26,915 nucleotides of DNA from a virus (Duplodnaviria > Heunggongvirae > Uroviricota > Caudoviricetes), in IMG/VR virus record IMGVR_UViG_2541047885_000002, positions 1 to 26,915 of that record. One strand, 5' to 3'. Shown here one piece after another: positions 1-26,915 of this stretch. The number at the start of each line of letters is the position of its first letter. The stretch's first letter is position 1. The translations under genes and the position numbers were made by a program. The notes under the pieces were generated by a model. That model made no database searches and was not told the origin of the DNA. It saw nothing but the letters and a program-made list of their open reading frames with translations.

Positions 1-92
1 CAGAAAAAGCTTATTATGCTTCCATCGGAAACGATGATCTGGCAGCCTGAGTTCACAGATAAAACACTCTCCAGGAAACCCGGGGCGGTTCA
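1..92 (+). mobile_element. Right-hand terminus of an IS3-family insertion sequence (last transposase codons plus terminal inverted repeat); the element body lies upstream of the window
   Basis: Frame 3 of nt 3-50 translates to [15 protein letters not shown]-stop, continuing the transposase C-terminus read on the minus strand at the other end of the window ([45 protein letters not shown]). Positions 1-92 are the exact reverse complement of 26699-26790. The terminus ends in CA, as in IS3-family ends. I recall this C-terminus as IS3 InsF-like but cannot confirm the exact IS name. Confidence 0.75.
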
Positions 93-1053
93 GTACATCG
101 GCACGGCATCCTACTTCGACCCTGAAGAACTATACAGCGCGCGAGAGTTTTACCATGACACTATCAACGCTTTCTACGGCAAGCAGCAGTATCTGTTTAA
201 TCCACCGTGGGAATCTCTGGCAGATAAATTCCAGTTCCGTGAGGCAGAGTTGACGCTGGTCAATGGTGTGAACGGTCACGGAAAAACGGAGGTTGTCGGG
301 CATATGGCACTTGAGGCAATGCGTCAGGGTGTGAAGACATGCATCGCGTCACTTGAGCTGAAGCCTGGTATTCTCCTTAAGCGCCTTACCCGTCAGGCGA
401 CGTGCTGCAAGATGCCGCCAGTGCTGGAAATTGACTCTGCATTTAAATTTTATGACGAAAGACTTTGGGTGTTTGGCCTGACCGGAACGGCGAAAGCCGA
501 CAGGCTGATCGAAATATTCGACTACGCTCGCCGCCGATACGGGATCCAGTTATTCATCATCGACAGCCTGATGAAATGTGGCATAGGCGACGATGACTAT
601 AACGGGCAGAAGGCTTTTGTTGACTCGATTTGCGACTTCAAAAACAAAACAAACTCCCACGTCATTCTCGTTACTCACTCGCGAAAAGGAGACAGCGAAG
701 AAAAACCAACCGGGAAAATGGACGTAAAAGGCTCTGGAGCGATAACAGACCTGACAGACAACCTTTTCATCATCTGGCGTAACAAGGCTCGCGATAGAGC
801 GTTACAGAGAGTTCAGAGTGGTGAAAAGATGTCAGAGAAGGACGAACAGCTACTGGCATCTCCGGCATCTGTTTTGATGCTTGAAAAACAACGTAACGGC
901 GAAGGTTGGGAAGGTGGTGTCCCGTTGTTCCTTGACGAGCAATCGCACCAGTTCCTGCAACTTGAATCAGGATCGCCATATAGCTACATCGCCAATATGC
1001 CGAAATCGGAATATGACGAGGCGTGGAGACAGGAAAACGTGACGGAGTATTAA
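16..1053 (+). pseudogene. 3' portion of a DnaB-family replicative helicase gene (P22 gene 12 position), 5'-truncated by the IS insertion; the first 25 codons of the ORF derive from the IS end
   Basis: The ORF is open to the window start. From nt 93 on the protein shows a Walker A-like NGVNGHGKTE, a Walker B-like LFIIDSLMKCG and the RecA-fold layout of DnaB-type helicase C-terminal domains. It sits immediately upstream of the nin region. The identity break at nt 92/93 marks the IS junction. Confidence 0.7.
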
Positions 1054-1082
1054 ATGACCATCTACATCACTGAGCTAATAAC

Positions 1083-1114
1083 AGGCCTGCTGGTAATCGC
1101 AGGCCTTTTTATTT
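1083..1114 (+). terminator. Intrinsic terminator after the helicase gene
   Basis: Stem AGGCCTGC (1083-1090), loop TGGTAATC, stem GCAGGCCT (1099-1106), followed by TTTTATTT. Confidence 0.7.
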
Positions 1115-1129
1115 GGGGGAGGGGGAAGT

Positions 1130-1456
1130 GTGGCTGACTGGCAAATTCCAATCATCATTCTTGCCGGAGCGTCGCTGATTGCTGGCTTTATCCTGCTGAA
1201 AAAGCATAAAGACCGTGATCAAAAAGTCGAAGTTCTCTATGGGTATCCAGCGAACAGCACAACATGGCTGACCATTTACCACTACCGAAAATCAGGCCGC
1301 TGGGTATTCGAATGGGATGATCTGTTTGCTGAAAAGCGACCAAAGTCATGGGGAGACATCAGCGAATGCATGATGTTTGAAGAAAGAAAATCCGGCGCAA
1401 CCCGAGAAGAGTTTAACGAAGCGTGGGCGCGATTAAGTGATAGAGGGTATTTGTGA
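1130..1456 (+). CDS. Hypothetical small membrane protein (one N-terminal TM helix)
   Basis: GTG start preceded by the strong SD GGGGGAGGGGGAA. N-terminal hydrophobic stretch IPIIILAGASLIAGFILL. Function unknown. Confidence 0.55.
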   Translation: MADWQIPIIILAGASLIAGFILLKKHKDRDQKVEVLYGYPANSTTWLTIYHYRKSGRWVFEWDDLFAEKRPKSWGDISECMMFEERKSGATREEFNEAWARLSDRGYL

Positions 1457-1650
1457 GCAAGTACGAAAAATTAGATCAAAACATTCTTTCAATGCTGAGT
1501 GAAAGACCAACACCTGTTTTTGATATCTGGCTTAAATGGCGGAGCAATGGAATGTATATCGAAACCATCGATCGCCGTATGCAATACCTGAGAAAGAAAG
1601 GGCTTGTTGCAAATGTGCGTGGGAAGGGTTGGGTGAAAATTAACCTGTAA
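1453..1650 (+). CDS. Hypothetical protein
   Basis: GTG start overlapping the upstream stop (GTGA), SD GAGGGTA 5 nt upstream. 65 aa, basic C-terminus. No family recognised. Confidence 0.45.
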   Translation: MSKYEKLDQNILSMLSERPTPVFDIWLKWRSNGMYIETIDRRMQYLRKKGLVANVRGKGWVKINL

Positions 1651-1664
1651 TAACGGGGGTTGAT

Positions 1665-1985
1665 ATGGACGAATCAAGAAAGCAGTTTGAAGAAAGTTGG
1701 TTGCGACGTGGGGGCGAATCTTCAGACCTTATCCGTTACCCTGAAAATCACCATGAAATTGGCAGCGGTAATATTGGTGGTCAATACGTGATGGACGATG
1801 TTCAAGGCCACTGGCAAACGTGGCAGGCATCGCGATCAGCTATTGAAATAACCGCGCCAAAGTTTATCGACAGCAGAGAAGCATTAGCCAAAGGGTTTAC
1901 TGTTGATTATTCCAATGGCTTCGGTGATGCAATGGATGCTTATGAGGAAAACATCCGCGCTGCTGGAGTCAAAGTGAAGGAGTAA
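1665..1985 (+). CDS. Hypothetical phage protein (pre-nin position)
   Basis: ATG with GGGGG SD; 106 aa; tightly packed in the operon. No family recognised. Confidence 0.55.
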   Translation: MDESRKQFEESWLRRGGESSDLIRYPENHHEIGSGNIGGQYVMDDVQGHWQTWQASRSAIEITAPKFIDSREALAKGFTVDYSNGFGDAMDAYEENIRAAGVKVKE

Positions 1986-1987
1986 CG

Positions 1988-2398
1988 ATGAAGCAAACAA
2001 TCTTCCTCCGTGGTAAACAACAACAGCAAGCCGCAATCAACGCCATCCTCGCAACACCACTCGATAAAGAAAAGCCAGTTACCATCCGCATTACTGACTA
2101 CAAGCGCAATCTTGACCAGAACGCAAAATTTCACGCGATGCTGGCGGATATCGCTCGTCAGGTTCAATGGTGCGGCAAATGGTTAAAACCAGAACAATGG
2201 AAGGTTTTGTTGATCAGCGGTCATGCAGTGGCAACAAAACAGGAAGCTGATGTTTTGCCCGGGCTTGAAGGCGAATACGTCAACATTCGCGAAAGCAGCG
2301 CGCAGATGAGTGTGAAGCGTATGGCAAGTCTTATCGAGTACACAACAGCCTGGGCTATTGGTCATGGTGTCAGATTTACCGACAGGAGGTACGAATGA
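1988..2398 (+). CDS. ninB: NinB (Orf-family recombination mediator)
   Basis: Translation shares the motifs I recall from lambda NinB (LDQN.K, Q..W.G.WL, similar length); sits at the head of a nin cluster. Confidence 0.9.
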
Positions 2399-2571
2399 GA
2401 CGACAGCGACGAAGTATCACCGACATCATCTGCGAAAACTGCAAATACCTTCCAACGAAACGCTCCAGAAATAAACGCAAGCCAATCCCAAAAGAATCTG
2501 ACGTAAAAACCTTCAACTACACGGCTCACCTGTGGGATATCCGGTGGCTTAGAGAACGTGCGAGGAAATGA
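2395..2571 (+). CDS. ninE: NinE
   Basis: 58-aa ORF absent from the supplied track (under 60 aa): [58 protein letters not shown], essentially the lambda NinE sequence as I recall it. ATGA overlap with the ninB stop. Confidence 0.85.
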
Positions 2572-2573
2572 CA

Positions 2574-2933
2574 ATGGATTATTCACAGTTAAGTGATTTT
2601 GAAATTAACGTGGCGGTATTCGAAGCCATTCATAACGGATCACCGGATTACAAAGAAGGTGAGAATGGCGATATGGTGTTTGTCTCATTTGAGGGAGACA
2701 TTGTAAACGGAGACGCAGTTGAAGTAGAAGTTGAGCGCGGTTCCTTTAACCCATGCGCAAACCCAGCAGACGCATGGCCGATTATTGAAAAATACAGGAT
2801 TAGCATTATCAATCTCGATGAAGACGAGTGGGGTGCACGCGGTGTGGCCTACTGTAAATCTAAGCGAGCTATACATGAAAATCCCCTCCGCGCCGCCATG
2901 ATTGTCTTTCTCATGATGCAGAGAATCCAATAA
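2574..2933 (+). CDS. Hypothetical protein in the NinX position (possibly NinX/DUF2591-like)
   Basis: ATG at 2574 is 6 nt after SD GAGGAA; the ATG at 2568 abuts the SD and is less likely. Starts MDYSQLSDFEIN. Lies between ninE and ninF, where P22-like phages carry ninX. Family assignment is from memory only. Confidence 0.55.
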   Translation: MDYSQLSDFEINVAVFEAIHNGSPDYKEGENGDMVFVSFEGDIVNGDAVEVEVERGSFNPCANPADAWPIIEKYRISIINLDEDEWGARGVAYCKSKRAIHENPLRAAMIVFLMMQRIQ

Positions 2934-3109
2934 TGCTTAGCCCATCCCAATCCCTTCAATACCAGAAAGAAAGCGTCGAGCGAGCTTTAACGTGCGCTAA
3001 CTGCGGTCAGAAGCTGCATGTGCTGGAAGTTCATGTATGTGAAGCGTGCTGCGCAGAACTGATGAGCGATCCGAATAGCTCGATGCACGAGGAAGAAGAC
3101 GATGGCTAA
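2933..3109 (+). CDS. ninF: NinF
   Basis: 58-aa ORF absent from the track: [58 protein letters not shown], matching lambda NinF as I recall it; Cys-rich. Confidence 0.85.
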
Positions 3110-3713
3110 ACCAGCGCGAAGACGATGTAAAAACGATGAATGTCGGGAATGGTTTCACCCTGCATTCGCCAATCAGTGGTGGTGCTCTCCAGAGTGTGGA
3201 ACCAAGATAGCACTCGAACGACGAAGCAAAGAACGCGAAAAAGCGGAAAAGGCAGCAGAGAAGAAACGACGACGAGAGGAGCAGAAACAGAAAGATAAAC
3301 TTAAGATTCGAAAACTCGCCTTAAAGCCCCGCAGTTACTGGATTAAACAAGCCCAACAAGCCGTAAACGCCTTCATCAGAGAAAGAGACCGCGACTTACC
3401 ATGTATCTCGTGCGGAACGCTCACGTCTGCTCAGTGGGATGCCGGACATTACCGGACAACTGCTGCGGCACCTCAACTCCGATTTGATGAACGCAATATT
3501 CACAAGCAATGCGTGGTGTGCAACCAGCACAAAAGCGGAAATCTCGTTCCGTATCGCGTCGAACTGATTAGCCGCATCGGGCAGGAAGCAGTAGATGAAA
3601 TCGAATCAAACCATAACCGCCATCGCTGGACTGTCGAAGAGTGCAGGGCCATCAAGGCAGAGTACCAACAGAAACTCAAAGACCTGCGAAATAGCAGAAG
3701 CGAGGCCGCATGA
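3102..3713 (+). CDS. ninG: NinG (Rap-type recombination endonuclease)
   Basis: 203 aa beginning [33 protein letters not shown], near-identical to lambda NinG as I recall it. Confidence 0.93.
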
Positions 3714-3916
3714 CGTTCTCAGTAAAAACCATTCCAGACATGCTCGTTGAAGCATACGGAAACCAGACAGAAGTAGCACGCAGACTGAAATGTAGTCGCG
3801 GTACGGTCAGAAAATACGTTGATGATAAAGACGGGAAAATGCACGCCATCGTCAACGACGTTCTCATGGTTCATCGCGGATGGAGTGAAAGAGATGCGCT
3901 ATTACGAAAGAATTGA
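3710..3916 (+). CDS. ninH: NinH
   Basis: 68 aa [39 protein letters not shown]..., matching lambda NinH; ATGA overlap with the ninG stop. Confidence 0.93.
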
Positions 3917-4565
3917 TGGCAGCAAATACCGAAATATTTGGGTAGTTGGCGATCTGCACGGATGCTACACGAACCTGATGAAAAAACTGGAGACGATAGG
4001 ATTCGACACCAAAAAAGACCTGCTTATCTCGGTTGGCGATTTGGTCGATCGCGGTACAGAGAACGTCGAATGTCTGGAATTAATCACATTCCCCTGGTTC
4101 CGAGCTGTACGTGGAAACCATGAGCAAATGATGATTGATGGCTTATCAGAGCGTGGAAACGTCAATCACTGGATGCTTAATGGCGGTGGCTGGTTCTTTA
4201 ATCTCGATTACGACAAAGAAATTCTGGCTAAAGCTCTTGCCCATAAAGCAGATGAACTTCCGTTAATCATCGAACTGGTGAGCAAAGATAAAAAATATGT
4301 CATCTGCCACGCCGATTATCCTTGTGACGAATACGAGTTTGGAAAGCCAGTTGATCATCAGCAGGTAATCTGGAACCGCGAACGAATCAGCAACTCACAA
4401 GACGGGATCGTAAAAGAAATCAAAGGAGCGGACACGTTCATCTTTGGTCATACGCCAGCAGTGAAACCACTCAAATTTGCCAACCAGATGTATATCGATA
4501 CCGGCGCAGTGTTCTGCGGAAACCTCACATTGATTCAGGTACAGGGAGAAGGCGCGTGGGCATAA
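3894..4565 (+). CDS. ninI: NinI, Ser/Thr protein phosphatase (lambda-PPase, metallophosphoesterase)
   Basis: Starts [28 protein letters not shown] with the GDLHG, GDLVDRG and GNHE metallophosphatase motifs; SD GGAG upstream of ATG 3894. The track's longer ORF from 3819 is rejected as an upstream in-frame extension. Confidence 0.93.
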
Positions 4566-5074
4566 GAGAACTAAACCTCACCAAAGAACAGCATGAGTGG
4601 CTGAATGGCTGGCTTGAACTGTGGGGCGCATGGGTTTATTCAGGTCGTCTGGAAAAGCGCATGAGCAGCGTAATAGCGAAGTTCATGGAGAGCGTAGAGC
4701 CGGGAAGAGTTATGACAAGGCCAATGTGCAATGATGATGATGGAATGTTGATTTCTCAGGTCGTCGATTCCGTCATGTACATTGACAAAAAAGCCTTTGG
4801 CATCCTCCTCAGCTACTACGCTCATGGTTCATCTAAGCGAGCAATTGCATCCTACTATCACGCGACTGCAAAGCCACGCAAGATGTGTGGACGTGGTGGC
4901 GAGGGATGGAGAAAACCTTCACTGGCAACCTGTAGAAACGAAATTGACGACATCCTGAAAGCGTCATTATTTGTTTTATACCAGCCAATGCAAAATGCTT
5001 TCAAAATGCGTAAACGTGTTGAGAAAGTTAAGCATGTTGCTGTTAAAAGCCTTGACATGCAATTAGCCATTTAG
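4556..5074 (+). CDS. Q: Late antiterminator Q (phage 21/933W-type, not lambda-type)
   Basis: Position directly after ninI and directly before a promoter-terminator pair. N-terminal LELWGAW resembles the LERWGAW motif I recall from Q of 933W/H-19B. Start taken as GTG 4556 after GGGAGAAGG; the exact start is uncertain. Confidence 0.7.
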
Positions 5075-5268: not shown

Positions 5269-5781
5269 ATGAAAGAAATAAAATTAACGCCAGAAATGGT
5301 GCTTTCTGTTGTTGATTACAATCCATCATCAGGCGACTTTCACTGGAGATGGAGGCAGGGGAGAGAGAGGACCACTTTGACATGGAACTCTCGTTTTGCT
5401 TTCAAGAAATGCTCATCAATAAATTCTGATGGGTATTTAATGATTATGATTAATGGTAAAGCATGCCCTGCTCACAGACTGGCATGGTTGATTGTTTATG
5501 GCACCATGCCCGATGGTTTTATTGATCACATCAACAGGGTAAGAACAGATAACCGGATATCAAATCTTCGTCTTGTCACTCATTCCGAAAATATGCAAAA
5601 CAGGAAAATTCAGAAGAATAATAAATCTGGATACCGTGGCGTGTCTTGGGATGCTAAGTACGGGAAATGGAGAGCAAGAATTAATGCGTCTGGAAAGTGT
5701 ATTAACCTTGGATACCATGACACTGCCGAACTTGCCGCTGCGGCTTTTGAGGCAGCCAGAATGAAATATCATACCGTTTAA
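5269..5781 (+). CDS. HNH endonuclease with C-terminal AP2-type DNA-binding domain (moron)
   Basis: HNH core ...AHRLAWLIVYGTMPDGFIDHINRVRTDNRISNLRLVTHSENMQN... and AP2-like SGYRGVSWDAKYGKWRARINASGKCINLGYHDTAELAAAAFEAA. SD AAGGTAA upstream. Confidence 0.8.
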   Translation: MKEIKLTPEMVLSVVDYNPSSGDFHWRWRQGRERTTLTWNSRFAFKKCSSINSDGYLMIMINGKACPAHRLAWLIVYGTMPDGFIDHINRVRTDNRISNLRLVTHSENMQNRKIQKNNKSGYRGVSWDAKYGKWRARINASGKCINLGYHDTAELAAAAFEAARMKYHTV

Positions 5782-5787
5782 AGATGT

Positions 5788-5832
5788 AAGCTGCCGTTAG
5801 TGACTCTTAAGTTGCAACGGTGGCTTTTTTTA
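5788..5832 (+). terminator. Putative intrinsic terminator after the HNH gene
   Basis: AAGCTGCCGTT (5788-5798) pairs with AACGGTGGCTT (5816-5826) including two G-U pairs, 17-nt loop, then a T7 run. The large loop lowers confidence. Confidence 0.45.
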
Positions 5833-6080
5833 TTTGCACAACAGGTAAGAGCATTGAGTCGATAATCGTGAAGAGTCGGCGCGCCTGGTTAGCCAGTGCT
5901 CTTTCCGTTGTGCTGAATTAAGCGAATACCGGAAGCAGAACCGGATCACCAAATGCGTACAGGCGTCATCGCCGCCCAGCAACAGCACAACCCAAACTGA
6001 GCCGTAGCCACTGGCTATCCTGAATTCATCAGTGATAGTTACGCTGCGGCCTTCTACACATGACCTTCGTGAAAGCGGGT

Positions 6081-6115
6081 GGCAAGAGGTTGCGCTAACA
6101 ACCTCCTGCCGTTTT
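6081..6115 (+). terminator. Strong hairpin plus U-tract in the late leader (candidate terminator or RNA structure)
   Basis: GGCAAGAGGTTG (6081-6092), loop CGCTAA, CAACCTCCTGCC (6099-6110) giving 11 of 12 pairs, followed by GTTTT. Confidence 0.5.
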
Positions 6116-6215
6116 GCCCGTGCATATCGGTCACGAACAAATCTGATTACTAAACACAGTAGCCTGGATTTGTTCTATCAGTAATCGACCTTATTCCTAA
6201 TTAAATAGAGCAAAT

Positions 6216-6231
6216 CCCCTCAATGAAGGGG
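6216..6231 (+). promoter_or_regulatory. Hairpin sequestering the holin Shine-Dalgarno sequence (sdi-like)
   Basis: CCCCT (6216-6220) pairs with AGGGG (6227-6231), loop CAATGA; the 3' arm is the holin SD, 6 nt before ATG 6238. Confidence 0.5.
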
Positions 6232-6237
6232 TAGAGC

Positions 6238-6441
6238 ATGTACCGTATGGACAAAATCAGAGAATGGTTCAGTTACAGCTTCGGAGGACTGACTGCGATG
6301 GGTGGCATTCTCTCCCTGAATGACTGGGCTGTCATCATTGGTATTCTTTGTACTGTCGGCACATTTGGCATCAACTGGTACTACAAGCGCAAAGAGCGCG
6401 AGGACAGATTGAATGGCAATGTCACCGGCACTACGAAATAG
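6238..6441 (+). CDS. Holin, phage-21 S-like class II pinholin with dual-start motif
   Basis: 67 aa, two TM segments (Gly-rich [17 protein letters not shown] and [19 protein letters not shown]), charged C-terminus, N-terminus MYRMDKI paralleling S21 MKSMDKI. Immediately upstream of the endolysin. Confidence 0.8.
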
Positions 6442-6916
6442 CGTAATAGCGGCGATAAGTGGCGGGGCTATTGCTATAGCATCTGTGTTAATCACTGGAC
6501 CAAGTGGTAACGATGGCCTGGAAGGTGTCAGCTACATACCATACAAAGATATTGTTGGTGTATGGACTGTATGTTACGGGCATACAGGAAAAGACATCAT
6601 TCCCAGTAAAACGTATACCGAAGCAGAATGCAAAGCCCTCCTGAATAAAGACCTTGCCACGGTCGCCAGACAAATTAACCCGTACATCAAAGTCGATATA
6701 CCGGAAACAACGCGCGGCGCTCTTTACTCGTTCGTCTACAACGTGGGGGCTGGCAATTTCAGAACATCGACGCTTCTTCGCAAAATAAACCAGGGCGATA
6801 TCAAAGGCGCATGTGACCAGCTACGTCGCTGGACATACGCTGGCGGTAAGCAATGGAAAGGGCTGATGACCCGTCGTGATATTGAGCGTGAAGTCTGTTT
6901 GTGGGGGCAGCAATGA
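6413..6916 (+). CDS. SAR endolysin (T4-lysozyme-like, phage 21 R-type)
   Basis: N-terminal Gly/Ala-rich signal-anchor-release segment ([17 protein letters not shown]) followed by the lysozyme core [25 protein letters not shown]; near-identical to R21 as I recall it. Confidence 0.9.
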
Positions 6917-7350
6917 GCAGGGTAACCGCGATTATCTCCGCTCTGGTTATCTGCATCATCGTCTGCCTGTCATGGGCTGTTAATCATTACCGTGATAACG
7001 CCATTACCTACAAAGAGCAGCGCGATAAAGCCACATCCATCATCGCTGATATGCAGAAGCGTCAACGTGATGTAGCAGAACTCGACGCCAGATACACAAA
7101 GGAGCTTGCTGATGCTAACGCGACTATCGAAAGCCTCCGTGCTGATGTTTCTGCTGGCCGTAAGCGCCTGCAAGTCGCCGCCACCTGTGCAAAGTCAACG
7201 ACCGGAGCCAGCAGCATGGGCGATGGAGAAAGCCCAAGACTTACAGCAGATGCTGAACTCAATTATTACCGCCTCCGAAGTGGAATCGACAAGATAACCG
7301 CGCAGGTTAACTACCTGCAGGAATACATCAGGACGCAATGCCTGAAATAA
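6913..7350 (+). CDS. Rz: Rz (i-spanin)
   Basis: [34 protein letters not shown]... matches the lambda Rz N-terminus; ATGA overlap with the endolysin stop. Confidence 0.9.
7112..7297 (+). CDS. Rz1: Rz1 (o-spanin lipoprotein) embedded in the +1 frame of Rz
   Basis: [36 protein letters not shown]: lipobox LAVSAC followed by a Pro-rich segment; SD AAAGGAG 7 nt upstream; lies wholly inside Rz. Confidence 0.75.
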
Positions 7351-8917: not shown

Positions 8918-9157
8918 TTAACCGCGAGCTTCACGACCGTTTTCGTCTTCAGGCACACGGAAACGCCAGTACTTATCTGGCTTAACCCAAACAACACTTT
9001 CACCGCTATCAACCCTGAATTTATTAATCACTTTTGTTGATAGCGCTTGGTTGCCATCCGCATTTTCTTTGAGGTGCTGCTCGTTATGTTGTTTAACGAG
9101 ATAATCCACAACATCCTGCTGATAAAGGCAACCCTCTGTTGATAAAACGGACATCAT
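8918..9157 (-). CDS. Hypothetical protein (minus-strand moron)
   Basis: 79-aa ORF antisense to the late operon, downstream of and co-oriented with the DUF2158-like gene. Start (9157 or 9154) uncertain, no strong SD. Confidence 0.5.
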   Translation of the reverse strand: MMSVLSTEGCLYQQDVVDYLVKQHNEQHLKENADGNQALSTKVINKFRVDSGESVVWVKPDKYWRFRVPEDENGREARG

Positions 9158-9201
9158 CCATGATGAAATATCATCAAGAGTTAAGGTTGGTGTGTTTGGG
9201 A

Positions 9202-9384
9202 CTATGGCTTTGGGGTAACGCGCTCAAGAGATTCCGGTTTGAAATATCCTTGCTCAAGCTTCTTGCCAGCAAACCATTGACAAAGAAAAGAGTTACCGTG
9301 GGTAGATGAAAATGACCTGATAGTCATGTCAGGTCCGCCTGATTTCAGTTTAACAATGTCACCTGTTTTAAAGTCATCGTTCAT
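9202..9384 (-). CDS. Small YodC/DUF2158-like protein (minus-strand moron)
   Basis: 60 aa MNDDFKTGDIVKLKSGGPDMTI..., recalled as the KSGGP-motif DUF2158 family; SD GGAG 6 nt upstream of ATG at 9384. The track's longer ORF from 9417 is rejected. Confidence 0.6.
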   Translation of the reverse strand: MNDDFKTGDIVKLKSGGPDMTIRSFSSTHGNSFLCQWFAGKKLEQGYFKPESLERVTPKP

Positions 9385-9410
9385 AACAATCTCCTTATGG
9401 GAAGTAAAAA

Positions 9411-17915: not shown

Positions 17916-18616
17916 TGGCTGATTCGAATCTCAACACCCCTGTTATTGTGCAGGCGACGCGGCTCGATACATCAATCCTTCCACGCAATATATTCAGCCA
18001 GTCTTACCTGCTGTATGTCATTAATCAGGGGGCTGATGTCGGCGCAATTGCCGGGAAGGCAAATCAGGCTGGTCAGGGCGCTTACGATGCTCAGGTGAAA
18101 AACGATGAACAGGACGTCGAACTGGCAGATCACGATTCAAGAATCACCGCAAACACAAAAGCGATAAATCTCCTTGAGGTCAGGTTAACAACCGCCGAAG
18201 GGAAGATAGTCGTACTGCGTAGCGATGTTGATTACTTGCTGGATGAGGTTATCGATATTCAGGCGCATCTGGTCACTGTTGACAAAAGACTGGATGGCGT
18301 AGAAAGCGATGTATCTGACATTAAGAGTGATTACGTATCGAAAACCGTAACAGAATCGCAGTCTCTTGCGTCACCGCTGGATGTAAAAACATCATATTCA
18401 GTTGATGGAATTCAGGTTGTTGGAGCAAGAAATACCGGATGGACTGCAGCCACAGGTACGCCACTTCTTGGCTCATTCAACGCTAACCAGTCATACACTG
18501 TCGGCACTACGTACACACAATCCGAAGTCGCAGCTCTCGCTACAGGTTTGCAGCAGGCGCGGCAGCGTATTCTGGCGCTTGAAACAGCACTTAGATTACA
18601 TGGGCTGATTGACTGA
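17915..18616 (+). CDS. Tail needle (P22 gp26-like)
   Basis: 233 aa; [73 protein letters not shown] and the C-terminal ...LRLHGLID match the gp26 pattern. Confidence 0.9.
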
Positions 18617-19071
18617 TGATTACATTCAAACCAACGCGAAACATCGACCTGATAGAAGCCGTGGGAAATCACCCCGACATTATCGCTGGTAGCAACAACG
18701 GTGATGGATACGACTACAAGCCTGAATGCCGTTACTTTGAGGTTAACGTGCACGGTCAGTTTGGCGGCATTGTTTACTATCAGGAGATTCAGCCGCTTAC
18801 ATTCGATTGCCACGCCATGTACCTGCCAGAGGTTCGCGGATTCAGCAAGGAAATCGGGCTGGCGTTCTGGCGATACATTCTGACTAACACCACCGTTCAG
18901 TGCGTCACATCGTTCGCTGCACGCAAATTCCGCCACGGGCAGATGTACTGCGCAATTATTGGCCTTAAGCGTGTAGGAACCATCAAGAAATACTTCAAAG
19001 GCGTGGATGACGTGACTTTTTACAGCGCCACACGCGAAGAACTAATCGACTTCCTGAATCACGGGAGATAG
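18616..19071 (+). CDS. Probable gp14-like assembly/ejection-associated protein
   Basis: Assigned by position only, between the needle and gp7 homologues; 151 aa. Confidence 0.5.
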   Translation: MITFKPTRNIDLIEAVGNHPDIIAGSNNGDGYDYKPECRYFEVNVHGQFGGIVYYQEIQPLTFDCHAMYLPEVRGFSKEIGLAFWRYILTNTTVQCVTSFAARKFRHGQMYCAIIGLKRVGTIKKYFKGVDDVTFYSATREELIDFLNHGR

Positions 19072-19073
19072 CC

Positions 19074-19766
19074 ATGTTATATGCATTTAAGCTGGGCAGA
19101 AAACTGCGCGGCGAGGAACCTTATTGCCCTGAAAAAGGCGGGAAAGGTGGCAGTTCTGATAAAAGTGCAAAGTATGCCGCAGAAGCTCAGAAGTATGCCG
19201 CAGACCTGCAAAATCAGCAGTTCAATACCATCATGAACAACCTGAAGCCGTTTACTCCTCTGGCTGGGAAGTATGTCGGCAGCCTTGAGAACTTATCGTC
19301 TCTGGAAGGGCAAGGTCAGGCACTTAACCAGTATTACAACTCTCAGCAGTACAAAGATCTTGCTGGTCAGGCTCGCTATCAGAGTCTGGCTGCAGCGGAA
19401 GCAACAGGTGGATTGGGTTCCACCGCAACCAGTAATCAGTTAGCAACAATCGCACCAACGCTTGGTCAGCAATGGCTATCTGGACAAATGAACAATTACA
19501 ACAACCTGGCAAATATCGGTCTTGGCGCTCTTCAGGGACAGGCAAACGCCGGGCAAACATATGCCAACAACATGAGTCAGATTTCACAGCAAAGCGCGGC
19601 GCTGGCGGCGGCAAACGCCAACCGACCGTCAGCATTGCGGCAGGGTGTTAGTGGTGCTGCATCCGGTGCGCTTTTGGGTGGTGGTATAGCCAGTGCTCTC
19701 GAGCTATCAACTCCGTGGGGTGCTGGTATCGGTGCTGGTCTTGGTCTGCTTGGCTCGTTGTTTTAA
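19074..19766 (+). CDS. Ejection protein (P22 gp7-like)
   Basis: MLYAFKLGRKLRGEEPYCPEKGGKGGSSDKSAKYAAEAQKYAADLQNQQFNTIMNNLKPF..., Gly-rich C-terminus ending LGLLGSLF; matches gp7 as I recall it. Confidence 0.88.
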   Translation: MLYAFKLGRKLRGEEPYCPEKGGKGGSSDKSAKYAAEAQKYAADLQNQQFNTIMNNLKPFTPLAGKYVGSLENLSSLEGQGQALNQYYNSQQYKDLAGQARYQSLAAAEATGGLGSTATSNQLATIAPTLGQQWLSGQMNNYNNLANIGLGALQGQANAGQTYANNMSQISQQSAALAAANANRPSALRQGVSGAASGALLGGGIASALELSTPWGAGIGAGLGLLGSLF

Positions 19767-19776
19767 GGGGTAATCA

Positions 19777-21120
19777 ATGGCTACGTGGCAACAGGGTATT
19801 AATTCTGGTGGTTTTCTGGCTGGAATTGGTGCGCAAAATGAGAATGCGCCAAAGGCAAGCGACATTAACGCAACGCTTGGTCTGATTCGCGAAAACAATG
19901 AACTGGCTCGCTCAGGTGCAAATAACGTTGGTCTGACCGCGTTACGTGGTCTGGCTGGAGTTGCTGATATTTATAAGCAGCAGCAACAGCAGGAGCGTAA
20001 AGCGGCATTCCAGAAAGGTTATGCGGATGCTTATGCGTCCGGCGACAGGGAGCAGATGCGTAATCTTATTACAGCATTCCCCGAAGAGTTTGAGGAAGTC
20101 CGTAAAGGCATGGGGTATGTCGATGACGCCCAGCGGGATGATTTTGGCAATCTGGCGCTCAAGGCTCAGGTAGCTTCGTCGCTTGGTCCGGGTGCATTTG
20201 GCAGGTTTATGATGGATAGCGAAAAGGAGATGCGTCGTTTAGGTATCCCTCCAGAAACTATTGCTGAAATGCAGGTTAATGACCCGCAGGGCTTCCAGCA
20301 CTTTGCAGGTAATCTGGCACTATTTTCTCTCGGCCATGAGAAGTATTTCGATATCAAAGATCAAATGGAGGGGCGTCGACTTGAGCAAGGGCGATTGGAT
20401 GAAAGCATCCGTCAGGCTGACATGGAGAATGCGAGAGGATGGGCAAATATCCAGAACGCTCAACTAGACAGGGCTCAGCGGGCACAAATGCACTCAGATG
20501 AGATGGGATTGAAGCTAATGGAGCTGGGGCAAAAAGGTAAGCCGTCAGCAGACTTAATTAAGGGATTAAATTCTGACATTACCAATTTTGGCAAAAATTA
20601 TAACTCTGTCAGAGCGGCGGCAAACTCTCTGCAAGCCCTTAGCAAGGTAAATACTGGCGCTGCCCAACTTGGGATTATCTTTAATTACATGAAGTCTCTC
20701 GACCCTCAGTCAGTTGTTCGCGAAGGTGAACAGGTTCAGGTCATGCGCTCTGATGGCATATGGGGGCAGATAAAAGGATATGTAGACCAGCTTAATGCAG
20801 GGAATGGCTTGTCACAGGAAGCGAGGGATAACATTGTCAACGCAGCAAAAATTAACGCCAACGCTATGGGGCAGCAGTTTAACCAGCAGGTAGACGAATA
20901 TCTGGATACGTATGGAGATACTATTCCTCAGGGGCTGAAAAAAAGTTTAGGGAGAAGGAAGGCCAAGCTATTTGACGATGTCCCAGCGCAGCCTACACCA
21001 CAAGGTGGTAATGGGCAGACAAAAGCTGCGCCAAGTGGGATATCAGAAGGCGCGACGGCAACGAACCCTAAAACTGGTCAGAAACTCATTTATAGGAACG
21101 GACAATGGCAACCGATGTAG
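19777..21120 (+). CDS. Ejection protein (P22 gp20-like)
   Basis: 447 aa, by position and size between the gp7 and gp16 homologues. Confidence 0.75.
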   Translation: MATWQQGINSGGFLAGIGAQNENAPKASDINATLGLIRENNELARSGANNVGLTALRGLAGVADIYKQQQQQERKAAFQKGYADAYASGDREQMRNLITAFPEEFEEVRKGMGYVDDAQRDDFGNLALKAQVASSLGPGAFGRFMMDSEKEMRRLGIPPETIAEMQVNDPQGFQHFAGNLALFSLGHEKYFDIKDQMEGRRLEQGRLDESIRQADMENARGWANIQNAQLDRAQRAQMHSDEMGLKLMELGQKGKPSADLIKGLNSDITNFGKNYNSVRAAANSLQALSKVNTGAAQLGIIFNYMKSLDPQSVVREGEQVQVMRSDGIWGQIKGYVDQLNAGNGLSQEARDNIVNAAKINANAMGQQFNQQVDEYLDTYGDTIPQGLKKSLGRRKAKLFDDVPAQPTPQGGNGQTKAAPSGISEGATATNPKTGQKLIYRNGQWQPM

Positions 21121-23261
21121 GTTTACCCGAAGGCTTTGTTCTCGATAATCAGCCTGATAACTCACAGCTTCCTGATGGCTTTGTGCTTGATTCCCAACCA
21201 GAACAGCAGCAATCTCCTTTGGTTTCACCAGAGGAAAATTCCAGACAGGAAAATGTTGTTAATAATGCTAACGGTTTCGACCGTTTTATGTATGGCGTTC
21301 TCAGTGGATTGATGGATGTTGGTAAAGGTGTTGGCCTGTTTCAGGACATGACACCAGAAGAGCAAGCCGCAATTCAGTCTCTACAGCAGAAGTTAGCGGC
21401 AAAACCATCAACCGCACAAGATGTTGGTGAGTTCGTTGGACAAGCAGCACCATTTGTTAGTGGTGGTGGGATTATTTCTCAGGTTCCGAAAGGGGCGGCA
21501 AGGCTGGCTGCCGCCGCAGGGCTTGGTGCTGGAGAAGGGGCTATTGTAGCCAATGGAACAAATAGCGATGTTGCTTCCGGCGCTGCTATTGGCGCTGTGG
21601 CTGGCCCTGTAGCCGAGATTGTTGGTCCAGCGCTTGGGAAGATTGCAGGAAAAATTAAAAATAGTGCCGGAGATATTTATCGCTCATCCGTAGGGATGGG
21701 TAGTAAATCATCTAAAGCAACGTTAAAGAAAGCTGCTGGCGCAATGGATAATAAATTTATTGGTGGGCAACGAGCTATTCAAGATTTCGCCGATGAAGTT
21801 AATCCTGATTTTAACGCGATAAATGCTATTCGTGAGCTAGAACTGGAAAATTATGCCACTCCAGGCATGATCTCTAATAATCCTGCTGTCAGGGCTCTTG
21901 ATAATGCAGTGGCAAGTCTCCCTGGAACAGAGATTAGTGAGGCGCATAAGCGTTTTATTACTGAATTAGGAAGAAAAGCTGATGAAATGATAACTTCATT
22001 TGGGGGAAACCTTGATAAGCAACTGGTTTCTGACAGGCTTGCAGATAATTTTGATAAAACCATTTCATCATTACAAAATCAGTCAGATAACATCTACAAC
22101 AAAATTGCCGAAAAGGTACCTGTAAGAGACCGGATTGAGGCAACTAATACATTGAATTTTTTAGAGGATTTTGCTGATGACATAGGTGGAATTGATGAAT
22201 TATCTCCAATAATGAAGCGGACATTGAACCGACTTGATCCAAACACCTTGCCAACGTATGGGCGTTTAGATCTCGCTAGAAAGCAGGTTGGACAAGCTAT
22301 TGGCAAAGGCTCTGGCCCATTCAAGGATGAAGAAACAGGTGTTCTTAAAAAGTTATATGCAGCCATAACAGATGACCAACAGGCTGTCGCAGAAAAATAT
22401 GGTGCAGGGGAATTATGGACGCTTGGTAAGGAGTTGGTAAAAAAACGAAAATCCATTGAAGATGATGCTGTAACCGTCTTGGGTAGAAAACTTCAGCAAT
22501 CAGCAATTCCAAAAGTTGAAAGTGCCGTTGTTAATATGGCAAAAGGAAACGGTGGTGACTTTAGGCAATTAATGAAGTCAATTCCAAAGGATATGCGGCA
22601 GGAAGTTGCGCTCACCTCAATGAATAAAGCATTTACCAGCTATGCCAAATCACCTGGTCAGCAATTAGGAGTTGATGGATTTGTAAAATGGTATAACGGA
22701 ATGTCACGCAATGGGGCCAATATGAAGGCTCTCCGTGATGCTATTGGCACAGATGCATCAAAGCGCCTTGATACGATTTATCAAGCAGCTAAGGCTATGA
22801 ATAGACTCAATACTGGTAAGCAGTATGCTAGTAGCCTTGTGGATCAGCAAGTTAATAACTTTCTGAAAGAAAAGGGTAGTCTCGCAAAAATTTATGGAAT
22901 AGTCTCAAAAGCTGCTGCGGCGGAAGGAATTACAAGCTCATTTGGCCTTTTGGGAGCAGGTGCTTCAGGGGTAATATCGGCTGCATTGATGTCAGGGAAA
23001 ACAAGCAGGATAAAGGCTGCTGATGCTCTACTGTCTTCTCCTGAGTTTAAATTAATGCTATTTCGCCTGCAAAACGCACCAGTAGACAGAGCAGAAGTGA
23101 GACGCGTAATAGAAAGGAAGCTGATGCGATCTAATGCATTTAAGATATGGGAGAAAACCCTGTCAACAGATGAAGCAAAAACCATTTCTCGCACGGGGTT
23201 TATCACATGGTTATCTCAGCAAGATACTACAGCCAGTGACGACCAACCCAAAATGCAATAA
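21105..23261 (+). CDS. Ejection protein (P22 gp16-like), with an N-terminal tandem repeat
   Basis: 718 aa, last gene of the ejection block, overlapping the gp20 stop. N-terminus carries two copies of LP(E/D)GFVLD(N/S)QP. Confidence 0.7.
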   Translation: MATDVGLPEGFVLDNQPDNSQLPDGFVLDSQPEQQQSPLVSPEENSRQENVVNNANGFDRFMYGVLSGLMDVGKGVGLFQDMTPEEQAAIQSLQQKLAAKPSTAQDVGEFVGQAAPFVSGGGIISQVPKGAARLAAAAGLGAGEGAIVANGTNSDVASGAAIGAVAGPVAEIVGPALGKIAGKIKNSAGDIYRSSVGMGSKSSKATLKKAAGAMDNKFIGGQRAIQDFADEVNPDFNAINAIRELELENYATPGMISNNPAVRALDNAVASLPGTEISEAHKRFITELGRKADEMITSFGGNLDKQLVSDRLADNFDKTISSLQNQSDNIYNKIAEKVPVRDRIEATNTLNFLEDFADDIGGIDELSPIMKRTLNRLDPNTLPTYGRLDLARKQVGQAIGKGSGPFKDEETGVLKKLYAAITDDQQAVAEKYGAGELWTLGKELVKKRKSIEDDAVTVLGRKLQQSAIPKVESAVVNMAKGNGGDFRQLMKSIPKDMRQEVALTSMNKAFTSYAKSPGQQLGVDGFVKWYNGMSRNGANMKALRDAIGTDASKRLDTIYQAAKAMNRLNTGKQYASSLVDQQVNNFLKEKGSLAKIYGIVSKAAAAEGITSSFGLLGAGASGVISAALMSGKTSRIKAADALLSSPEFKLMLFRLQNAPVDRAEVRRVIERKLMRSNAFKIWEKTLSTDEAKTISRTGFITWLSQQDTTASDDQPKMQ

Positions 23262-23324: not shown

Positions 23325-23747
23325 CTAACCATCGGATAGGCGCTCTTTTGCCTCTTCGATTAAATCAGCACAAATAAAAGGTAGCTCTGATGAAACAACT
23401 TCCCAGCCAGATTTTTTAACAACTTCATTTAGCCACTCTTCTCTATCGCGAGTTCCTCTCCTTTTTTCCAAGAGGAAAATTTGCGAGTAAATTTGAATGG
23501 CTTTTTCGTTTAGATAAAACGCATATTGTCTGTTTAAAACAACATCTGCAAGTATATTAACGCCTTCTTGAGTTTTTGCCGCTACATCTGGCTCTACCCC
23601 CATACGAATAGATAGGTCGCATAACTCAACGAATGCACGCTCTTCAGCGTCGTGTTTCATTTTGTAAAAATGTGAAGCTAATTTTTGTGTTTCGGCAAGT
23701 TCCGCCCTTAATTTTTTTATCTTGCTTCTCGTTAATATGCCAAACAC
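23325..23747 (-). CDS. Hypothetical protein, visibly AT-rich gene (accessory)
   Basis: GTG start 5 nt after a strong SD AAGGAGG, giving 140 aa; the track's ATG at 23822 has no SD and is disfavoured. N-terminus charged and probably helical. No family recognised. Confidence 0.55.
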   Translation of the reverse strand: MFGILTRSKIKKLRAELAETQKLASHFYKMKHDAEERAFVELCDLSIRMGVEPDVAAKTQEGVNILADVVLNRQYAFYLNEKAIQIYSQIFLLEKRRGTRDREEWLNEVVKKSGWEVVSSELPFICADLIEEAKERLSDG

Positions 23748-23812
23748 ACCAACCTCCTTAGTTTTGAGCAGGATACCAGATGATAATGTGTAGTTGGAGT
23801 AGCGCGGTTGTA

Positions 23813-23902
23813 ATGCAAGCATTTTGTTTTGGTTTTATGCTTGCTTGTATGTGTGTACAGTGTATATAATGCAAGCATACATCACAACAAAGGTGCTTGC
23901 AT
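23813..23902. promoter_or_regulatory. Divergent promoter region with four copies of a near-palindromic 10-bp motif ATGCWWGCAT, plus a sigma70 promoter for the rightward gene
   Basis: Motif copies at 23813-23822, 23837-23846, 23869-23878 and 23893-23902. Promoter TTGCTT (23841-23846), 18-bp spacer, TATAAT (23865-23870). Motif copies overlap the -35, the -10 and the RBS/start region. Confidence 0.65.
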
Positions 23903-24927: not shown

Positions 24928-25464
24928 TCAAACAACCCACCAGTTTGCCTGATTGGATACCAGCCTTGCAGTTTTTATGGAATTAATTATGCCATGCTCA
25001 AGAGCCTTGTTAGCATCCAAAATGGTCGAGTCTGCTATCAGGGATGCCCACCTAATATGGGTTCCGATGTCGATATTGAACGTCTCAACGAAGCGATCAA
25101 GATCGTTATCGAGGCATTTCCCGTACTCTCTCAATCTGGCATGGTCGGCGGCTGGGGTGGCAAAGCCCCATAATAGAGGATGTAACAGGAATCTTGATAA
25201 TGGGTTTGCGAAACGTTCTGAGCCAGCCAGGAAAACGATATTAGCTATGGATTCAACATTGCTTATGTTGTGAGTTCTAACGGTAACAGGGAGTGACTTA
25301 AGAAAGTTATACGCAGTAAAGCCAGCGGCAGTTTCCCCTCCCTGACTTGATATATGGATATTTAATTCAGTTGCGCCTTGAGATAATGCGGTGAGACAGT
25401 GGTTCTGAAGTTGCCCAACAGTGGCAGTGTTAACGGGGCATAAGAAATGAATTGTGTGCAGCAT
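24928..25464 (-). CDS. ClpP-family (S14-like) serine peptidase homologue, translationally coupled to the mnt-like gene
   Basis: 178 aa aligning by eye to E. coli ClpP: SQGGETAAG vs SPGGVITAG, catalytic-Ser region ESIANIVFLAG vs ASMGAFLLTAG, His in RFLLHPL vs RVMIHQPL, and an Asp in the IADSTILD region. Its ATG overlaps the mnt stop (TAATG). Confidence 0.65.
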   Translation of the reverse strand: MLHTIHFLCPVNTATVGQLQNHCLTALSQGATELNIHISSQGGETAAGFTAYNFLKSLPVTVRTHNISNVESIANIVFLAGSERFANPLSRFLLHPLLWGFATPAADHARLREYGKCLDNDLDRFVETFNIDIGTHIRWASLIADSTILDANKALEHGIINSIKTARLVSNQANWWVV

Positions 25465-25712
25465 TATTTTTCATCCTTACCATACATGGTCTTTAGCGTC
25501 TCAAGCAGCGCCTCTTTGAATTTGTCAGCTTCTTGCTGAGCAAATGACTCAACTGACTTTGGCGACCTATCTTCATCAATCGCGGCTTGCAAAATCATGA
25601 CGATCTCGGAGTTAACAGAGCGACCATTTTTTGATGCTCTGACAGCAAGAGCCTCGCGTAAAGATTCAGGGATTCTTACCGTAGTTGGAGAAATTGACAC
25701 ACCCTTTGCCAT
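25464..25712 (-). CDS. mnt: Mnt-like ribbon-helix-helix repressor
   Basis: 82 aa with RHH core VRIPESLREALAVRASKNGRSVNSEIVMILQAAI (the NGRSVNSEI signature of the Arc/Mnt family) and a helical C-terminus, same architecture and length as P22 Mnt; divergent from the arc-like gene. Confidence 0.8.
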   Translation of the reverse strand: MAKGVSISPTTVRIPESLREALAVRASKNGRSVNSEIVMILQAAIDEDRSPKSVESFAQQEADKFKEALLETLKTMYGKDEK

Positions 25713-25732
25713 ATCACACCTTTGGTATTCAA

Positions 25733-25744
25733 TTTGATATCAAA
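25733..25744. promoter_or_regulatory. Perfect 12-bp palindrome TTTGATATCAAA in the mnt-arc intergenic region (candidate operator)
   Basis: Lies 21 bp upstream of the mnt start and about 80 bp upstream of the arc-like start, where the P22 immI operators lie; a TTGACT -35-like hexamer is at 25762-25767. Confidence 0.5.
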
Positions 25745-25826
25745 GTGTATGCAAAAAAATTTTGACTAGATATACTCACTTTGCTATCTTTTGTATTCTA
25801 AAAGAGTTGTTTGTGTGGAGGGTAAC

Positions 25827-25979
25827 ATGGAGAAAGAAATAAGTAAGATTTTGGTAAGGATGCCGCAGTCGTTAAAGGATGCTATCGGTAGCAGGGCAAA
25901 GGAAGAGTGCAGGTCGTTTAACTCAGAGGTTATCAAGCGCCTGATAGACAGCCTGAAGAGAGAGGGGATAACGGTATGA
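25827..25979 (+). CDS. arc: Arc-like ribbon-helix-helix repressor
   Basis: 50 aa [50 protein letters not shown], the P22 Arc pattern and size; SD GGAGGG 5 nt upstream. The track's longer ORF from 25791 is rejected. Confidence 0.75.
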   Translation: MEKEISKILVRMPQSLKDAIGSRAKEECRSFNSEVIKRLIDSLKREGITV

Positions 25980-26179
25980 GTAAAGAATGTTGTTTCTGCG
26001 GCATTAGCGAATCAGACGCTGATCAAACATACATTTACTCTAAAGAAACAGGTCGGATGCTGTGTAGTGACTGCGTGTTGGACATCATAAGATACAAGCA
26101 TCTTGGATGTTCTGCCAGCATTAGCAATATAGGTGAAGTATACGAAGGGAAAGATATAACTGATAGAGCAGAAAGTTGA
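25976..26179 (+). CDS. Small Cys-rich (zinc-ribbon-like) protein
   Basis: 67 aa with CCFCG ... CSDC; ATGA overlap with the arc-like stop; between arc and the antirepressor gene. Confidence 0.5.
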
Positions 26180-26241
26180 AGCCCCAACTGCTGGAACAGT
26201 CAGGGCTTCGGTATCAACAAATCGGCTTAGGAAATATTGAC

Positions 26242-26698
26242 ATGAAAAGTATAGCAAAGGCACAAAACGATTTCACCATCTTCAAATTTGGCGACAGTGA
26301 AATTCGCGTCATTAACAAGTGCGGCGAGCCGTGGTTTGTAGCTAAAGATGTTTGTGATGCTTTAGCTTTGACTAACTCACGCAAGGCGCTTACTGCACTT
26401 GATGACGATGAAAAGGGAGTAACTTTAAGTTACACCCTTGGTGGTGAGCAGAATCTAAGCATTGTGAGCGAATCAGGTATGTATACATTGGTTCTGCGCT
26501 GCCGCGATGCAGTCAATAAAGGTTCAGTCCCGCACAAATTCCGCAAGTGGGTAACAGCAGAAGTTCTGCCTTCAATTCGCAAACATGGCGAGTATGTAAA
26601 AGGAAAGAAAACCACTGTTGAGGAAAGAACACCGCTACGCGATGCAGTAAACATGCTGGTAGGAAAGAAAGGACTTCGCTATGACGATGCATACAATA
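26242..26698 (+). pseudogene. ant: Bro-N domain antirepressor (ant position), 3'-truncated by the IS insertion
   Basis: From ATG 26242: [60 protein letters not shown]...[14 protein letters not shown]...[17 protein letters not shown] is a typical Bro-N domain. The ORF runs into IS sequence at 26699. Confidence 0.8.
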
Positions 26699-26915
26699 TG
26701 AACCGCCCCGGGTTTCCTGGAGAGTGTTTTATCTGTGAACTCAGGCTGCCAGATCATCGTTTCCGATGGAAGCATAATAAGCTTTTTCTGCTTCTGCCGG
26801 AGGAGTATGGCCCAGCCTTTCCAGCAATCGTCGATTGTTATACCAGTCCACCCACGTGAGTGTGGCCAGTTCCACTTCTGCACGGTTTTTCCAGCTCTTA
26901 CGGTGTATTACCTCC
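26699..26915 (-). mobile_element. Right-hand end of a second copy of the same IS3-family element, inverted relative to the copy at the window start; the transposase 3' end is read on the minus strand
   Basis: 26699-26790 is the exact reverse complement of 1-92. The minus strand of 26741-26915 encodes ...[45 protein letters not shown]-stop, an IS3-family OrfB C-terminus. The element continues beyond the window. Confidence 0.8.

Follow-up and report, generated by a model that had tools for sequence, protein, structure and literature searches.

Two oppositely oriented copies of an IS629-type element, very probably inserted independently, in a P22-like prophage of Escherichia coli

The analysed stretch of DNA, hereafter called the window (26,915 nucleotides), is one contig of scaffold KE701649.1 (GCA_000460275.1) from a draft Escherichia coli genome and covers a P22-like prophage, integrated beside ybhB-bioA, over its replication-distal two thirds. 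The scaffold was identified by exact matches of the Ant fusion protein and of a protein of the nin region. The window is bounded by N on both sides, with 1000 N directly before its first base and 1200 N directly after base 26915. The features of the window and of its two edges are the following:

1-92, plus strand: 3' tip of the left IS copy (IS629/IS1203-type), the remainder of which lies in the 1000-N gap and the preceding contig
3-47, plus strand (frame 3): last 15 orfB codons of the left IS, with the stop codon TGA at 48-50
about 68-92, plus strand: right terminal inverted repeat (IRR) of the left IS, ending in ...GGTTCA
93-96: right-hand copy of the 4-bp target-site duplication GTAC of the left IS (empty site in CP031215)
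97-1053, plus strand: 3' part of the primase-helicase gene, codons 309-626 of 626 aa (Toprim_2 and AAA_25/DnaB_C), split by the left IS
1130-5074, plus strand: nin region up to the late antiterminator, with NinB, NinE, NinX, NinF, NinG, NinH, a Ser/Thr phosphatase and the Q-type protein (Pfam)
4556-5074, plus strand: Q-type antiterminator (Pfam label)
6238-7350, plus strand: lysis cassette with holin, lysozyme and Rz-like protein (called genes)
9411-23261, plus strand: P22-type morphogenesis block with small and large terminase, portal (732 aa), scaffold, coat, gp4, gp10, needle, gp14 and the ejection proteins gp7, gp20 and gp16
24928-26240: immI-type region, its members following by strand
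within 24928-26240, minus strand: ClpP-like gene
25464-25712, minus strand: Mnt/Arc-family repressor
25721-25756: palindromic operator-like site
25827-25979, plus strand: Arc-family gene
26174-26240, minus strand: sar antisense RNA (Rfam, 69 bits)
26242-26698, plus strand: 5' part of ant, the first 152 codons (Bro-N) of a 292-aa antirepressor, split by the right IS
26696-26698: left-hand copy of the 3-bp target-site duplication ATA of the right IS (empty site in CP024256)
26699-26915, minus strand: 3' 217 nt of the right IS copy, the remainder of which lies in the 1200-N gap, with the IRL end on the next contig
26699-26723, minus strand: terminal repeat of the right IS
26741-26743 and 26744-26914, minus strand: stop codon and last 57 orfB codons of the right IS

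The affiliation with P22-like phages is documented by the Pfam families P22_portal, P22_Tail-4, Phage_stabilise, P22_gp7, Inj_translocase, Arc, Bro-N and P22_AR_C together with the sar RNA. The DNA matches CUS-3, E212, Sf101 and others at 92-94% and E. coli prophages at up to 98%, and the comparison of the whole window with complete E. coli genomes yielded mosaic P22-like relatives but no locus identical to it. The late genes that were compared, ranging from the large terminase to gp16, have the lengths of their counterparts in uninterrupted relatives with a single exception (230 versus 229 aa). A PADLOC scan of the accessory genes returned only homing-endonuclease matches and one weak match.

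A repeat search of the window showed that positions 1-92 and 26699-26790 are reverse complements over 92 nt with 100% identity, separated by 26606 nt, in agreement with the initial annotation, which had described perfect reverse-complement arms with identical ends facing inward. A perfect inverted match of this length within 27 kb cannot have originated by chance. The left element ends with ...CCCGGGGCGGTTCA at position 92, the right copy starts with TGAACCGCCCCGGG at position 26699 on the opposite strand, and in either copy the inner end, pointing towards the phage segment, is the transposase-distal one (IRR). The repeat is only 92 nt long because the window is a contig whose ends lie at N gaps inside the IS; both gaps fall within IS copies, and the localization of IS tips at the very edges of the window is thus the result of the draft assembly. 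On the right, the IS sequence runs on to position 26915 (217 nt), and the true repeat presumably comprises the whole IS of ~1.3 kb, most of it within the N gaps. The IS copies span 1311 and 1510 bp of the scaffold, but these values include the estimated gaps of 1000 and 1200 N, and the second one exceeds the IS length of 1310 bp by 200 bp. The sequenced parts of both copies are mutually identical (93 nt at the 5' and 92 nt at the 3' side), while the mid-part of ~1000 nt is N in each of them, and their full length, intactness and overall mutual identity are assumed.

The termini of the element (TGAACCGCCCCGGG...CCCGGGGCGGTTCA) are of the TG...CA type and include a 25-bp imperfect inverted repeat, whose left (IRL, TGAACCGCCCCGGGAATCCTGGAGA) and right (IRR, TGAACCGCCCCGGGTTTCCTGGAGA) versions are alike at 23 of the 25 positions in both copies. 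The N-terminus of orfA matches HTH_Tnp_1 within its sequenced part (1.3e-7), and the C-terminal 57 aa of orfB match positions 327-369 of NF033516 (1.5e-8) as well as rve_2/rve_3; the frameshift site and the DDE core of both copies are located inside the N gaps. Strain M15 contains a complete 1310-bp copy, annotated as a transposase of the IS3 family with a programmed frameshift and flanked by the target duplication CTA, to which the 217-nt 3' piece is 99.1% identical; the fragment is ~97% identical to O157:H7 copies that are named IS1203 by RefSeq. The termini, the inverted repeat, the orfA/orfB profile matches and the 99.1% match to an annotated copy identify the element as a member of the IS3 family, as had been proposed from the last ~15 transposase codons and the terminal repeat; 15 codons and a stop codon can indeed be read. 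We assign the element to the IS629/IS1203/IS3411 type and leave the isoform name unfixed.

The left copy, whose transposase reads rightward, is inserted into the primase-helicase gene. Its IRL end (TGAACCGCCCCGGGAATCC...) is located on the preceding contig directly after ...GGCAGTAC, and its IRR in the window is directly followed by GTAC. The other copy of this duplication closes the phage sequence of the preceding contig (...ctggcaGTAC, then TGAACC). In silico removal of the IS together with one GTAC restores a 626-aa ORF with Toprim_2, AAA_25 and DnaB_C, and the uninterrupted gene of CP031215 has the same length and a single GTAC. A by-product of the insertion is an ORF at positions 16-1053 that reads in frame out of the IS end and encodes a 345-aa IS-helicase fusion. 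In the genome annotation this ORF appears as a partial gene that extends into the gap, and an exact search with the fusion protein gave no match.

The right copy, with its transposase reading leftward, is inserted into ant. Its IRR end lies after ...CAATA, its IRL end is located on the next contig followed by ATATGG, and the other ATA copy opens the phage sequence of that contig (GGTTCA, then ATAtggttc). The removal of this IS and one ATA restores a 292-aa ORF with the Bro-N and P22_AR_C domains, which corresponds to the uninterrupted gene of the same length with a single ATA in CP024256. The called ant gene of the window runs on into the IS and ends at position 26859 as a 205-aa fusion. A 4-bp reading of the duplication (ATAT) was rejected; only the 3-bp removal restores the 292-aa ORF, and other offsets break the frame.

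It is very likely that the two oppositely oriented IS copies were inserted independently of each other, each of them into one phage gene. The flanking contigs provide a separate IRL end for each copy, together with flanks and a target-site duplication that it does not share with the other, and the length of the duplications, 4 bp on the left and 3 bp on the right, corresponds to the 3-4 bp that are expected for the IS629/IS1203 group. The halves of both split genes are moreover collinear across their IS in the scaffold. Transposition by copy-out-paste-in has been described for the IS3 family (bioRxiv 10.1101/2023.06.07.543989), and two 1.3-kb copies would have transposed separately into the prophage by this route, one into the primase-helicase gene and the other into ant. 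Short reads, which are unable to cross a multicopy IS, would then have caused a contig break inside each copy, so that the contig tips retained 92 nt and 217 nt of an identical IS end. Searches of 5426 complete E. coli genomes, metagenome contigs and GTDB species representatives retrieved neither junction (exact patterns with 0 matches in the latter two), and since both are absent from these collections the insertions appear to be strain-specific. Several proposals of the initial annotation are borne out by these data. The view of two separate inverted copies that both interrupt phage genes is corroborated by the separate IRL ends, flanks and duplications and by the two ORFs regained upon excision; the target-site duplications it had suggested to look for are present; and the proposed comparison with uninterrupted prophages revealed the empty sites in CP031215 and CP024256. 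The extension beyond both ends recovered the outer junctions but not the full IS copies, whose mid-parts consist of N.

A scenario in which the 26.6-kb segment is already inverted, or present as a mixture of both orientations, with the late region flipped relative to the early region, is improbable. RecA recombination can act on inverted repeats as long as ~1.3 kb, and inversions between inverted repeats have been documented in prophages of E. coli O157 (PMC7430833). Short-read scaffolding provides the majority orientation only. The orientation of a contig between inverted repeats depends on the mate-pair scaffolding of the assembler, in which mixed inversion isomers would be invisible. However, both split genes are collinear across the IS and each IS is located between its own duplication copies, whereas after an inversion both copies would have GTAC on one side and the complement of ATA on the other, and the gene halves would lie on opposite strands. 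The only available scaffolded orientation is the parental one, and no inversion was seen in this single orientation of the draft assembly. If RecA recombined the two inverted copies, the 26.6-kb nin-Q-late-immI segment could be flipped, and Q would thereby be detached from pR transcription. It is nevertheless very unlikely that the IS pair serves as a RecA switch that couples or uncouples the late genes from the early operon in a mixed population, or that it mobilises the P22-type virion gene set as a 29-kb compound transposon.

Even less credence can be given to a functional composite transposon, formed by both IS copies and the intervening DNA, that brought in the phage late genes or is able to mobilise them. 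The presence of one IS in inverted orientation on either side of a segment does recall Tn5 and Tn10, and compound transposons built on copy-out-paste-in IS have been discussed (bioRxiv 10.1101/2023.06.07.543989). However, the flanking contigs revealed neither a shared outer target duplication nor foreign cargo: the outer duplications differ, with GTAC at the left and ATA at the right copy, each being equal to its own inner flank; the gene order continues collinearly from the bracketed DNA into the surrounding phage genes, and excision restores two intact ORFs. This argues that the segment neither arrived nor moved as a unit. The junctions are absent elsewhere among the genomes and contigs searched, the same IS-bounded unit was found neither in the 5426 E. 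coli genomes nor in metagenome contigs or GTDB representatives, and a 29-kb unit would be very large for the formation of an IS3-type circle. The composite-transposon-like geometry that had been pointed out initially is thus real with respect to the arrangement, but the differing outer duplications contradict its movement as a unit. An assembly artefact, in which both ends stem from one IS copy or from a collapsed or misjoined repeat and no bracketing pair exists, is scarcely conceivable: the window does end at N gaps in a multicopy repeat, where drafts are least reliable and of which an E. coli genome contains up to 50 IS629-type sites, but the IRL-side contig of each copy has a unique flank that continues the interrupted gene in frame, each copy has a matching duplication (GTAC or ATA) in accordance with the empty sites of other genomes, and four different unique flanks are impossible for a single permuted or misassembled copy, the situation named in the initial annotation as incompatible with its proposal.

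Two independent simple insertions would have unequal consequences for the phage. Judged by gene identity, the split primase-helicase gene would leave the prophage unable to replicate, and the loss of Ant is predicted to be neutral or even stabilising for lysogeny. Since Ant is dispensable in P22, only the primase-helicase insertion is likely to cripple the phage. The classification of the prophage as decaying or domesticated is in this respect overstated; a likely crippling insertion is present, but the compared late genes have retained the lengths of their homologues in intact relatives, apart from the one with 230 instead of 229 aa. The damage was assessed over 46 kb, a range that ends short of the left prophage end with int and attL.

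The significance of the locus beyond this strain is small, but it provides a clean example of a multicopy IS disabling a replication gene and an antirepressor gene. Multicopy IS fragment short-read assemblies, and a contig that ends in IS tips can mimic a special structure. Contig boundaries should hence be checked first whenever genome scans detect inverted identical ends at the edges of a window.

The gene order of the prophage, from nin via Q, lysis, terminase, portal, scaffold, coat, gp4/10/26 and ejection proteins to immI (mnt, arc, sar, ant) and tailspike, is that of the P22-like phages of the CUS-3, E212, Sf101 and HK620 group, with which it shares a nucleotide identity of 92-94% in the structural block and the sar RNA. 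It differs from them by its mosaic composition outside this block (<=50% of the query covered) and by the two IS insertions. With the compound transposons Tn5 and Tn10 the locus has in common two inverted copies of one IS around a segment, but it lacks a shared outer duplication, its cargo is native to the surroundings, and the unit is absent elsewhere. An isoform of IS629, IS3411, flanks the citrate transposon Tn3411. The element itself resembles IS629, IS1203 and IS3411 of E. coli and Shigella in its termini, the 25-bp repeat, the HTH of orfA, the rve-type C-terminus of orfB and the duplications of 3-4 bp. IS1203 and IS3411 are isoforms of IS629, and 62% of the IS629 copies of O157:H7 are located in prophages or prophage-like elements (PMC3271280). 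Unlike those O157 hosts, the strain investigated here is not O157, judging from its prophage with a K1-type endosialidase tailspike. IS629-type insertions in prophages are already well documented, and the current case is an ordinary one. It shares the type of IS, the preference for prophages and the interruption of phage genes with the lambdoid prophages of O157:H7 (stx2::IS629, Sp5, Sp12), whose IS629 insertions vary from strain to strain (PMC7430833). In contrast to these examples, two inverted copies reside in a single P22-like (podovirus-type) prophage, in the primase-helicase gene and in ant, at insertion sites that are unseen in the other genomes searched.

Two independent IS insertions of an ordinary kind bound the 26.6-kb block of prophage DNA, and they are visible here through the ends of a draft contig. 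A repeat search of the window recovered arms at 1-92 and 26699-26790 (92 nt, 100% complementary, spacer 26606 nt). The left arm reads as 15 transposase codons at 3-47 followed by TGA at 48-50, and its terminus at position 92 is ...CCCGGGGCGGTTCA. The right-hand copy starts with TGAACCGCCCCGGG at 26699 on the opposite strand, and IS sequence continues to the window end (217 nt). Direct reading of both arms thus shows that each inner end is the transposase-distal end of one and the same IS type and that both point inward, and it confirms the perfect inverted IS3-family ends described in the initial annotation.

The window is one contig of the scaffolded draft (scaffold KE701649.1, GCA_000460275.1), the only record with an exact-sequence match to the Ant-IS fusion protein (26242-26859); a nin-region protein leads to the same scaffold. 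Runs of 1000 N directly before base 1 and 1200 N directly after base 26915 show that the contig is broken on both sides within a multicopy IS, and the 92-nt limit of the repeat is the contig end and no biological boundary. The chromosome to the right of the prophage is ybhB-bioABFC of E. coli, a gene group that 5425 of 5426 complete genomes carry.

Where both copies are sequenced they do not differ (5' pieces of 93 nt, 3' pieces of 92 nt; the interiors are unsequenced). In strain M15 a complete copy (1310 bp, CTA duplication), which RefSeq annotates as IS3 family transposase with programmed frameshift, shows 99.1% identity to the 217 nt that can be compared. Of the 25 positions in the terminal repeats 23 match, with TG...CA at the ends; the orfB C-terminus matches NF033516 (IS3 family transposase, positions 327-369 of 369) and rve_2/rve_3, and the orfA N-terminus matches HTH_Tnp_1. 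Copies in O157:H7, named IS1203 by RefSeq, show about 97% identity; IS1203 and IS3411 are isoforms of IS629, and 62% of the IS629 copies of O157:H7 sit in prophages, their preferred location (PMC3271280). Transposition of the IS629 type is copy-out-paste-in, as in other IS3-family members (bioRxiv 10.1101/2023.06.07.543989).

The left copy splits the primase-helicase gene. The preceding contig terminates ...GAAATCTGGCAGTAC|TGAACCGCCCCGGGAATCCTGGAGACTAAAC... and contains 219 nt of the IS including the orfA start; beyond the gap, at the window start, 92 nt of its other end are followed by GTACATCGG. The target duplication is GTAC. When the IS and a single GTAC are taken out in silico, the flanks form one 626-aa ORF, as long as the 'toprim domain-containing protein' genes that stand uninterrupted in other E. 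coli prophages, with the following domain matches:

Residues 209-296: Toprim_2
Residues 355-594: AAA_25/DnaB_C

The break lies after codon 308 between these domains, and the truncated 5' part stops at TGA, the first three IS bases. The empty site in genome CP031215 (...CTGGCAGTACATCGGC...) has GTAC once only. The primase-helicase gene is the replication gene of the phage, and its split between domains should block replication of the prophage after induction.

The right copy interrupts the antirepressor gene ant. The window reads ...GCATACAATA|TGAACCGCC at the junction, and the next contig provides 93 nt of the left terminal repeat (IRL) end, followed by |ATATGGTTCATC. ATA is the target duplication, as supported by a frame test: removal of the IS and one ATA restores a 292-aa Bro-N + P22_AR_C antirepressor, and the frame is lost if two or four bases are removed instead. 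In CP024256 the empty site (...CATACAATATGGTTCATC...) likewise holds ATA once only. P22 grows without Ant; loss of the protein should be neutral or stabilise repression. In a related prophage of strain AF14 (NZ_OZ546925.1), from another E. coli lineage, ant is independently split by a different IS3-family element with IS2-like ends (TGGATTTGCCCC...) and a 5-bp CATAT duplication (locus positions 5420-6752), which suggests that ant is an IS target repeatedly tolerated or favoured.

Both events are clean simple insertions without adjacent deletion, because excision restores the ORFs and the empty sites hold the duplicated bases once. Insertion as a composite transposon is ruled out by the different outer flanks (GTAC vs ATA) and by the bracketed DNA continuing outside as phage genes. 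The reading given in the initial annotation holds for the most part: the inverted IS pair and the interruption of both genes stand. On both sides of each IS the gene halves are on the + strand, an orientation that rests on scaffolding, and each IS has its own duplication; the assembled molecule has thus undergone no recombination between the copies.

The bracketed DNA represents the right two thirds of a P22-like prophage, ranging from the helicase part of the replication gene via the nin region, Q, the HNH-AP2 ORF, lysis genes, a KilA-N gene and the terminase genes to portal, scaffold, coat, head-completion genes, ejection proteins, P63C and ClpP-like genes, mnt/arc/sar and the ant start. Further features of the window are:

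16-1053 (+): chimeric ORF, 345 aa, IS end read in frame into the helicase domain
5269-5781 (+): HNH_3 + AP2 homing-endonuclease-like ORF, 170 aa, between the Q antiterminator and holin genes
8918-9417 (-): small DUF6953 and DUF2158 genes opposing the late operon, directly upstream of the small terminase gene
21105-23261 (+): 718-aa protein at the gp16 position, no Pfam match
23325-23822 (-): 165-aa ORF after the ejection-protein genes, no Pfam or PADLOC match
24928-25464 (-): ClpP-like protease gene (PF00574, 4.4e-12) in the immI region
25464-25712: Mnt/Arc-family repressor gene, the ClpP-like gene directly downstream with a one-base overlap
25721-25756: overlapping palindrome TTTGGTATTCAATTTGATATCAAAGTGTATGCAAAA between divergent Arc-family genes, probably the Mnt/Arc operator region
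26174-26240 (-): sar RNA (Rfam RF00262, 69 bits, E 1.3e-12), antisense, just upstream of the ant start
26242-26859 (+): chimeric ORF, 205 aa, first 152 codons of Ant plus IS antisense, a gene call in the public annotation

The sar RNA documents that P22-type antisense control of ant is present despite the broken gene. Other P22-like prophages of E. coli (M15, AF14) have the ClpP-like and Mnt/Arc pair too. The DUF6953/DUF2158 pair looks like a moron-type insertion and recurs in another prophage, where a related HNH_3/AP2 gene follows the primase-helicase gene.

The late genes compared (terminase 471, portal 732, coat 419, gp10 472, gp20 447, gp16 718 aa) have the lengths of their uninterrupted relatives, save one (230 vs 229 aa). 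Neither IS junction was found in 5426 complete E. coli genomes, metagenome contigs and GTDB representative genomes. Together with the intact late genes and the absence of both an inversion and a composite unit, this indicates that the insertions are recent and strain-specific. Recombination between the inverted copies could flip the 26.6-kb block, and prophage inversions driven by inverted repeats are documented (PMC7430833); a flip would part nin-Q from pR, and Q would stay with pR' and the late genes. An IS629 insertion need not be polar under antitermination, and a stx2::IS629 prophage still gave functional phage (PMC7430833).

Phages such as E212, CUS-3, Kapi1 and Sf101 share 92-94% identity with the structural block, and for prophages in E. 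coli chromosomes the figure rises to as much as 98%. On the far side of the right IS follow the remainder of ant, a tailspike gene with endosialidase domains and then ybhB-bioA. The tailspike, beyond the right end of the window (flanking-locus positions 12493-15438), comprises End_N_terminal, End_beta_propel, End_tail_spike and Peptidase_S74; such endosialidase domains imply a K1-type host, and they are found likewise in K1-capsule-specific phages such as CUS-3.
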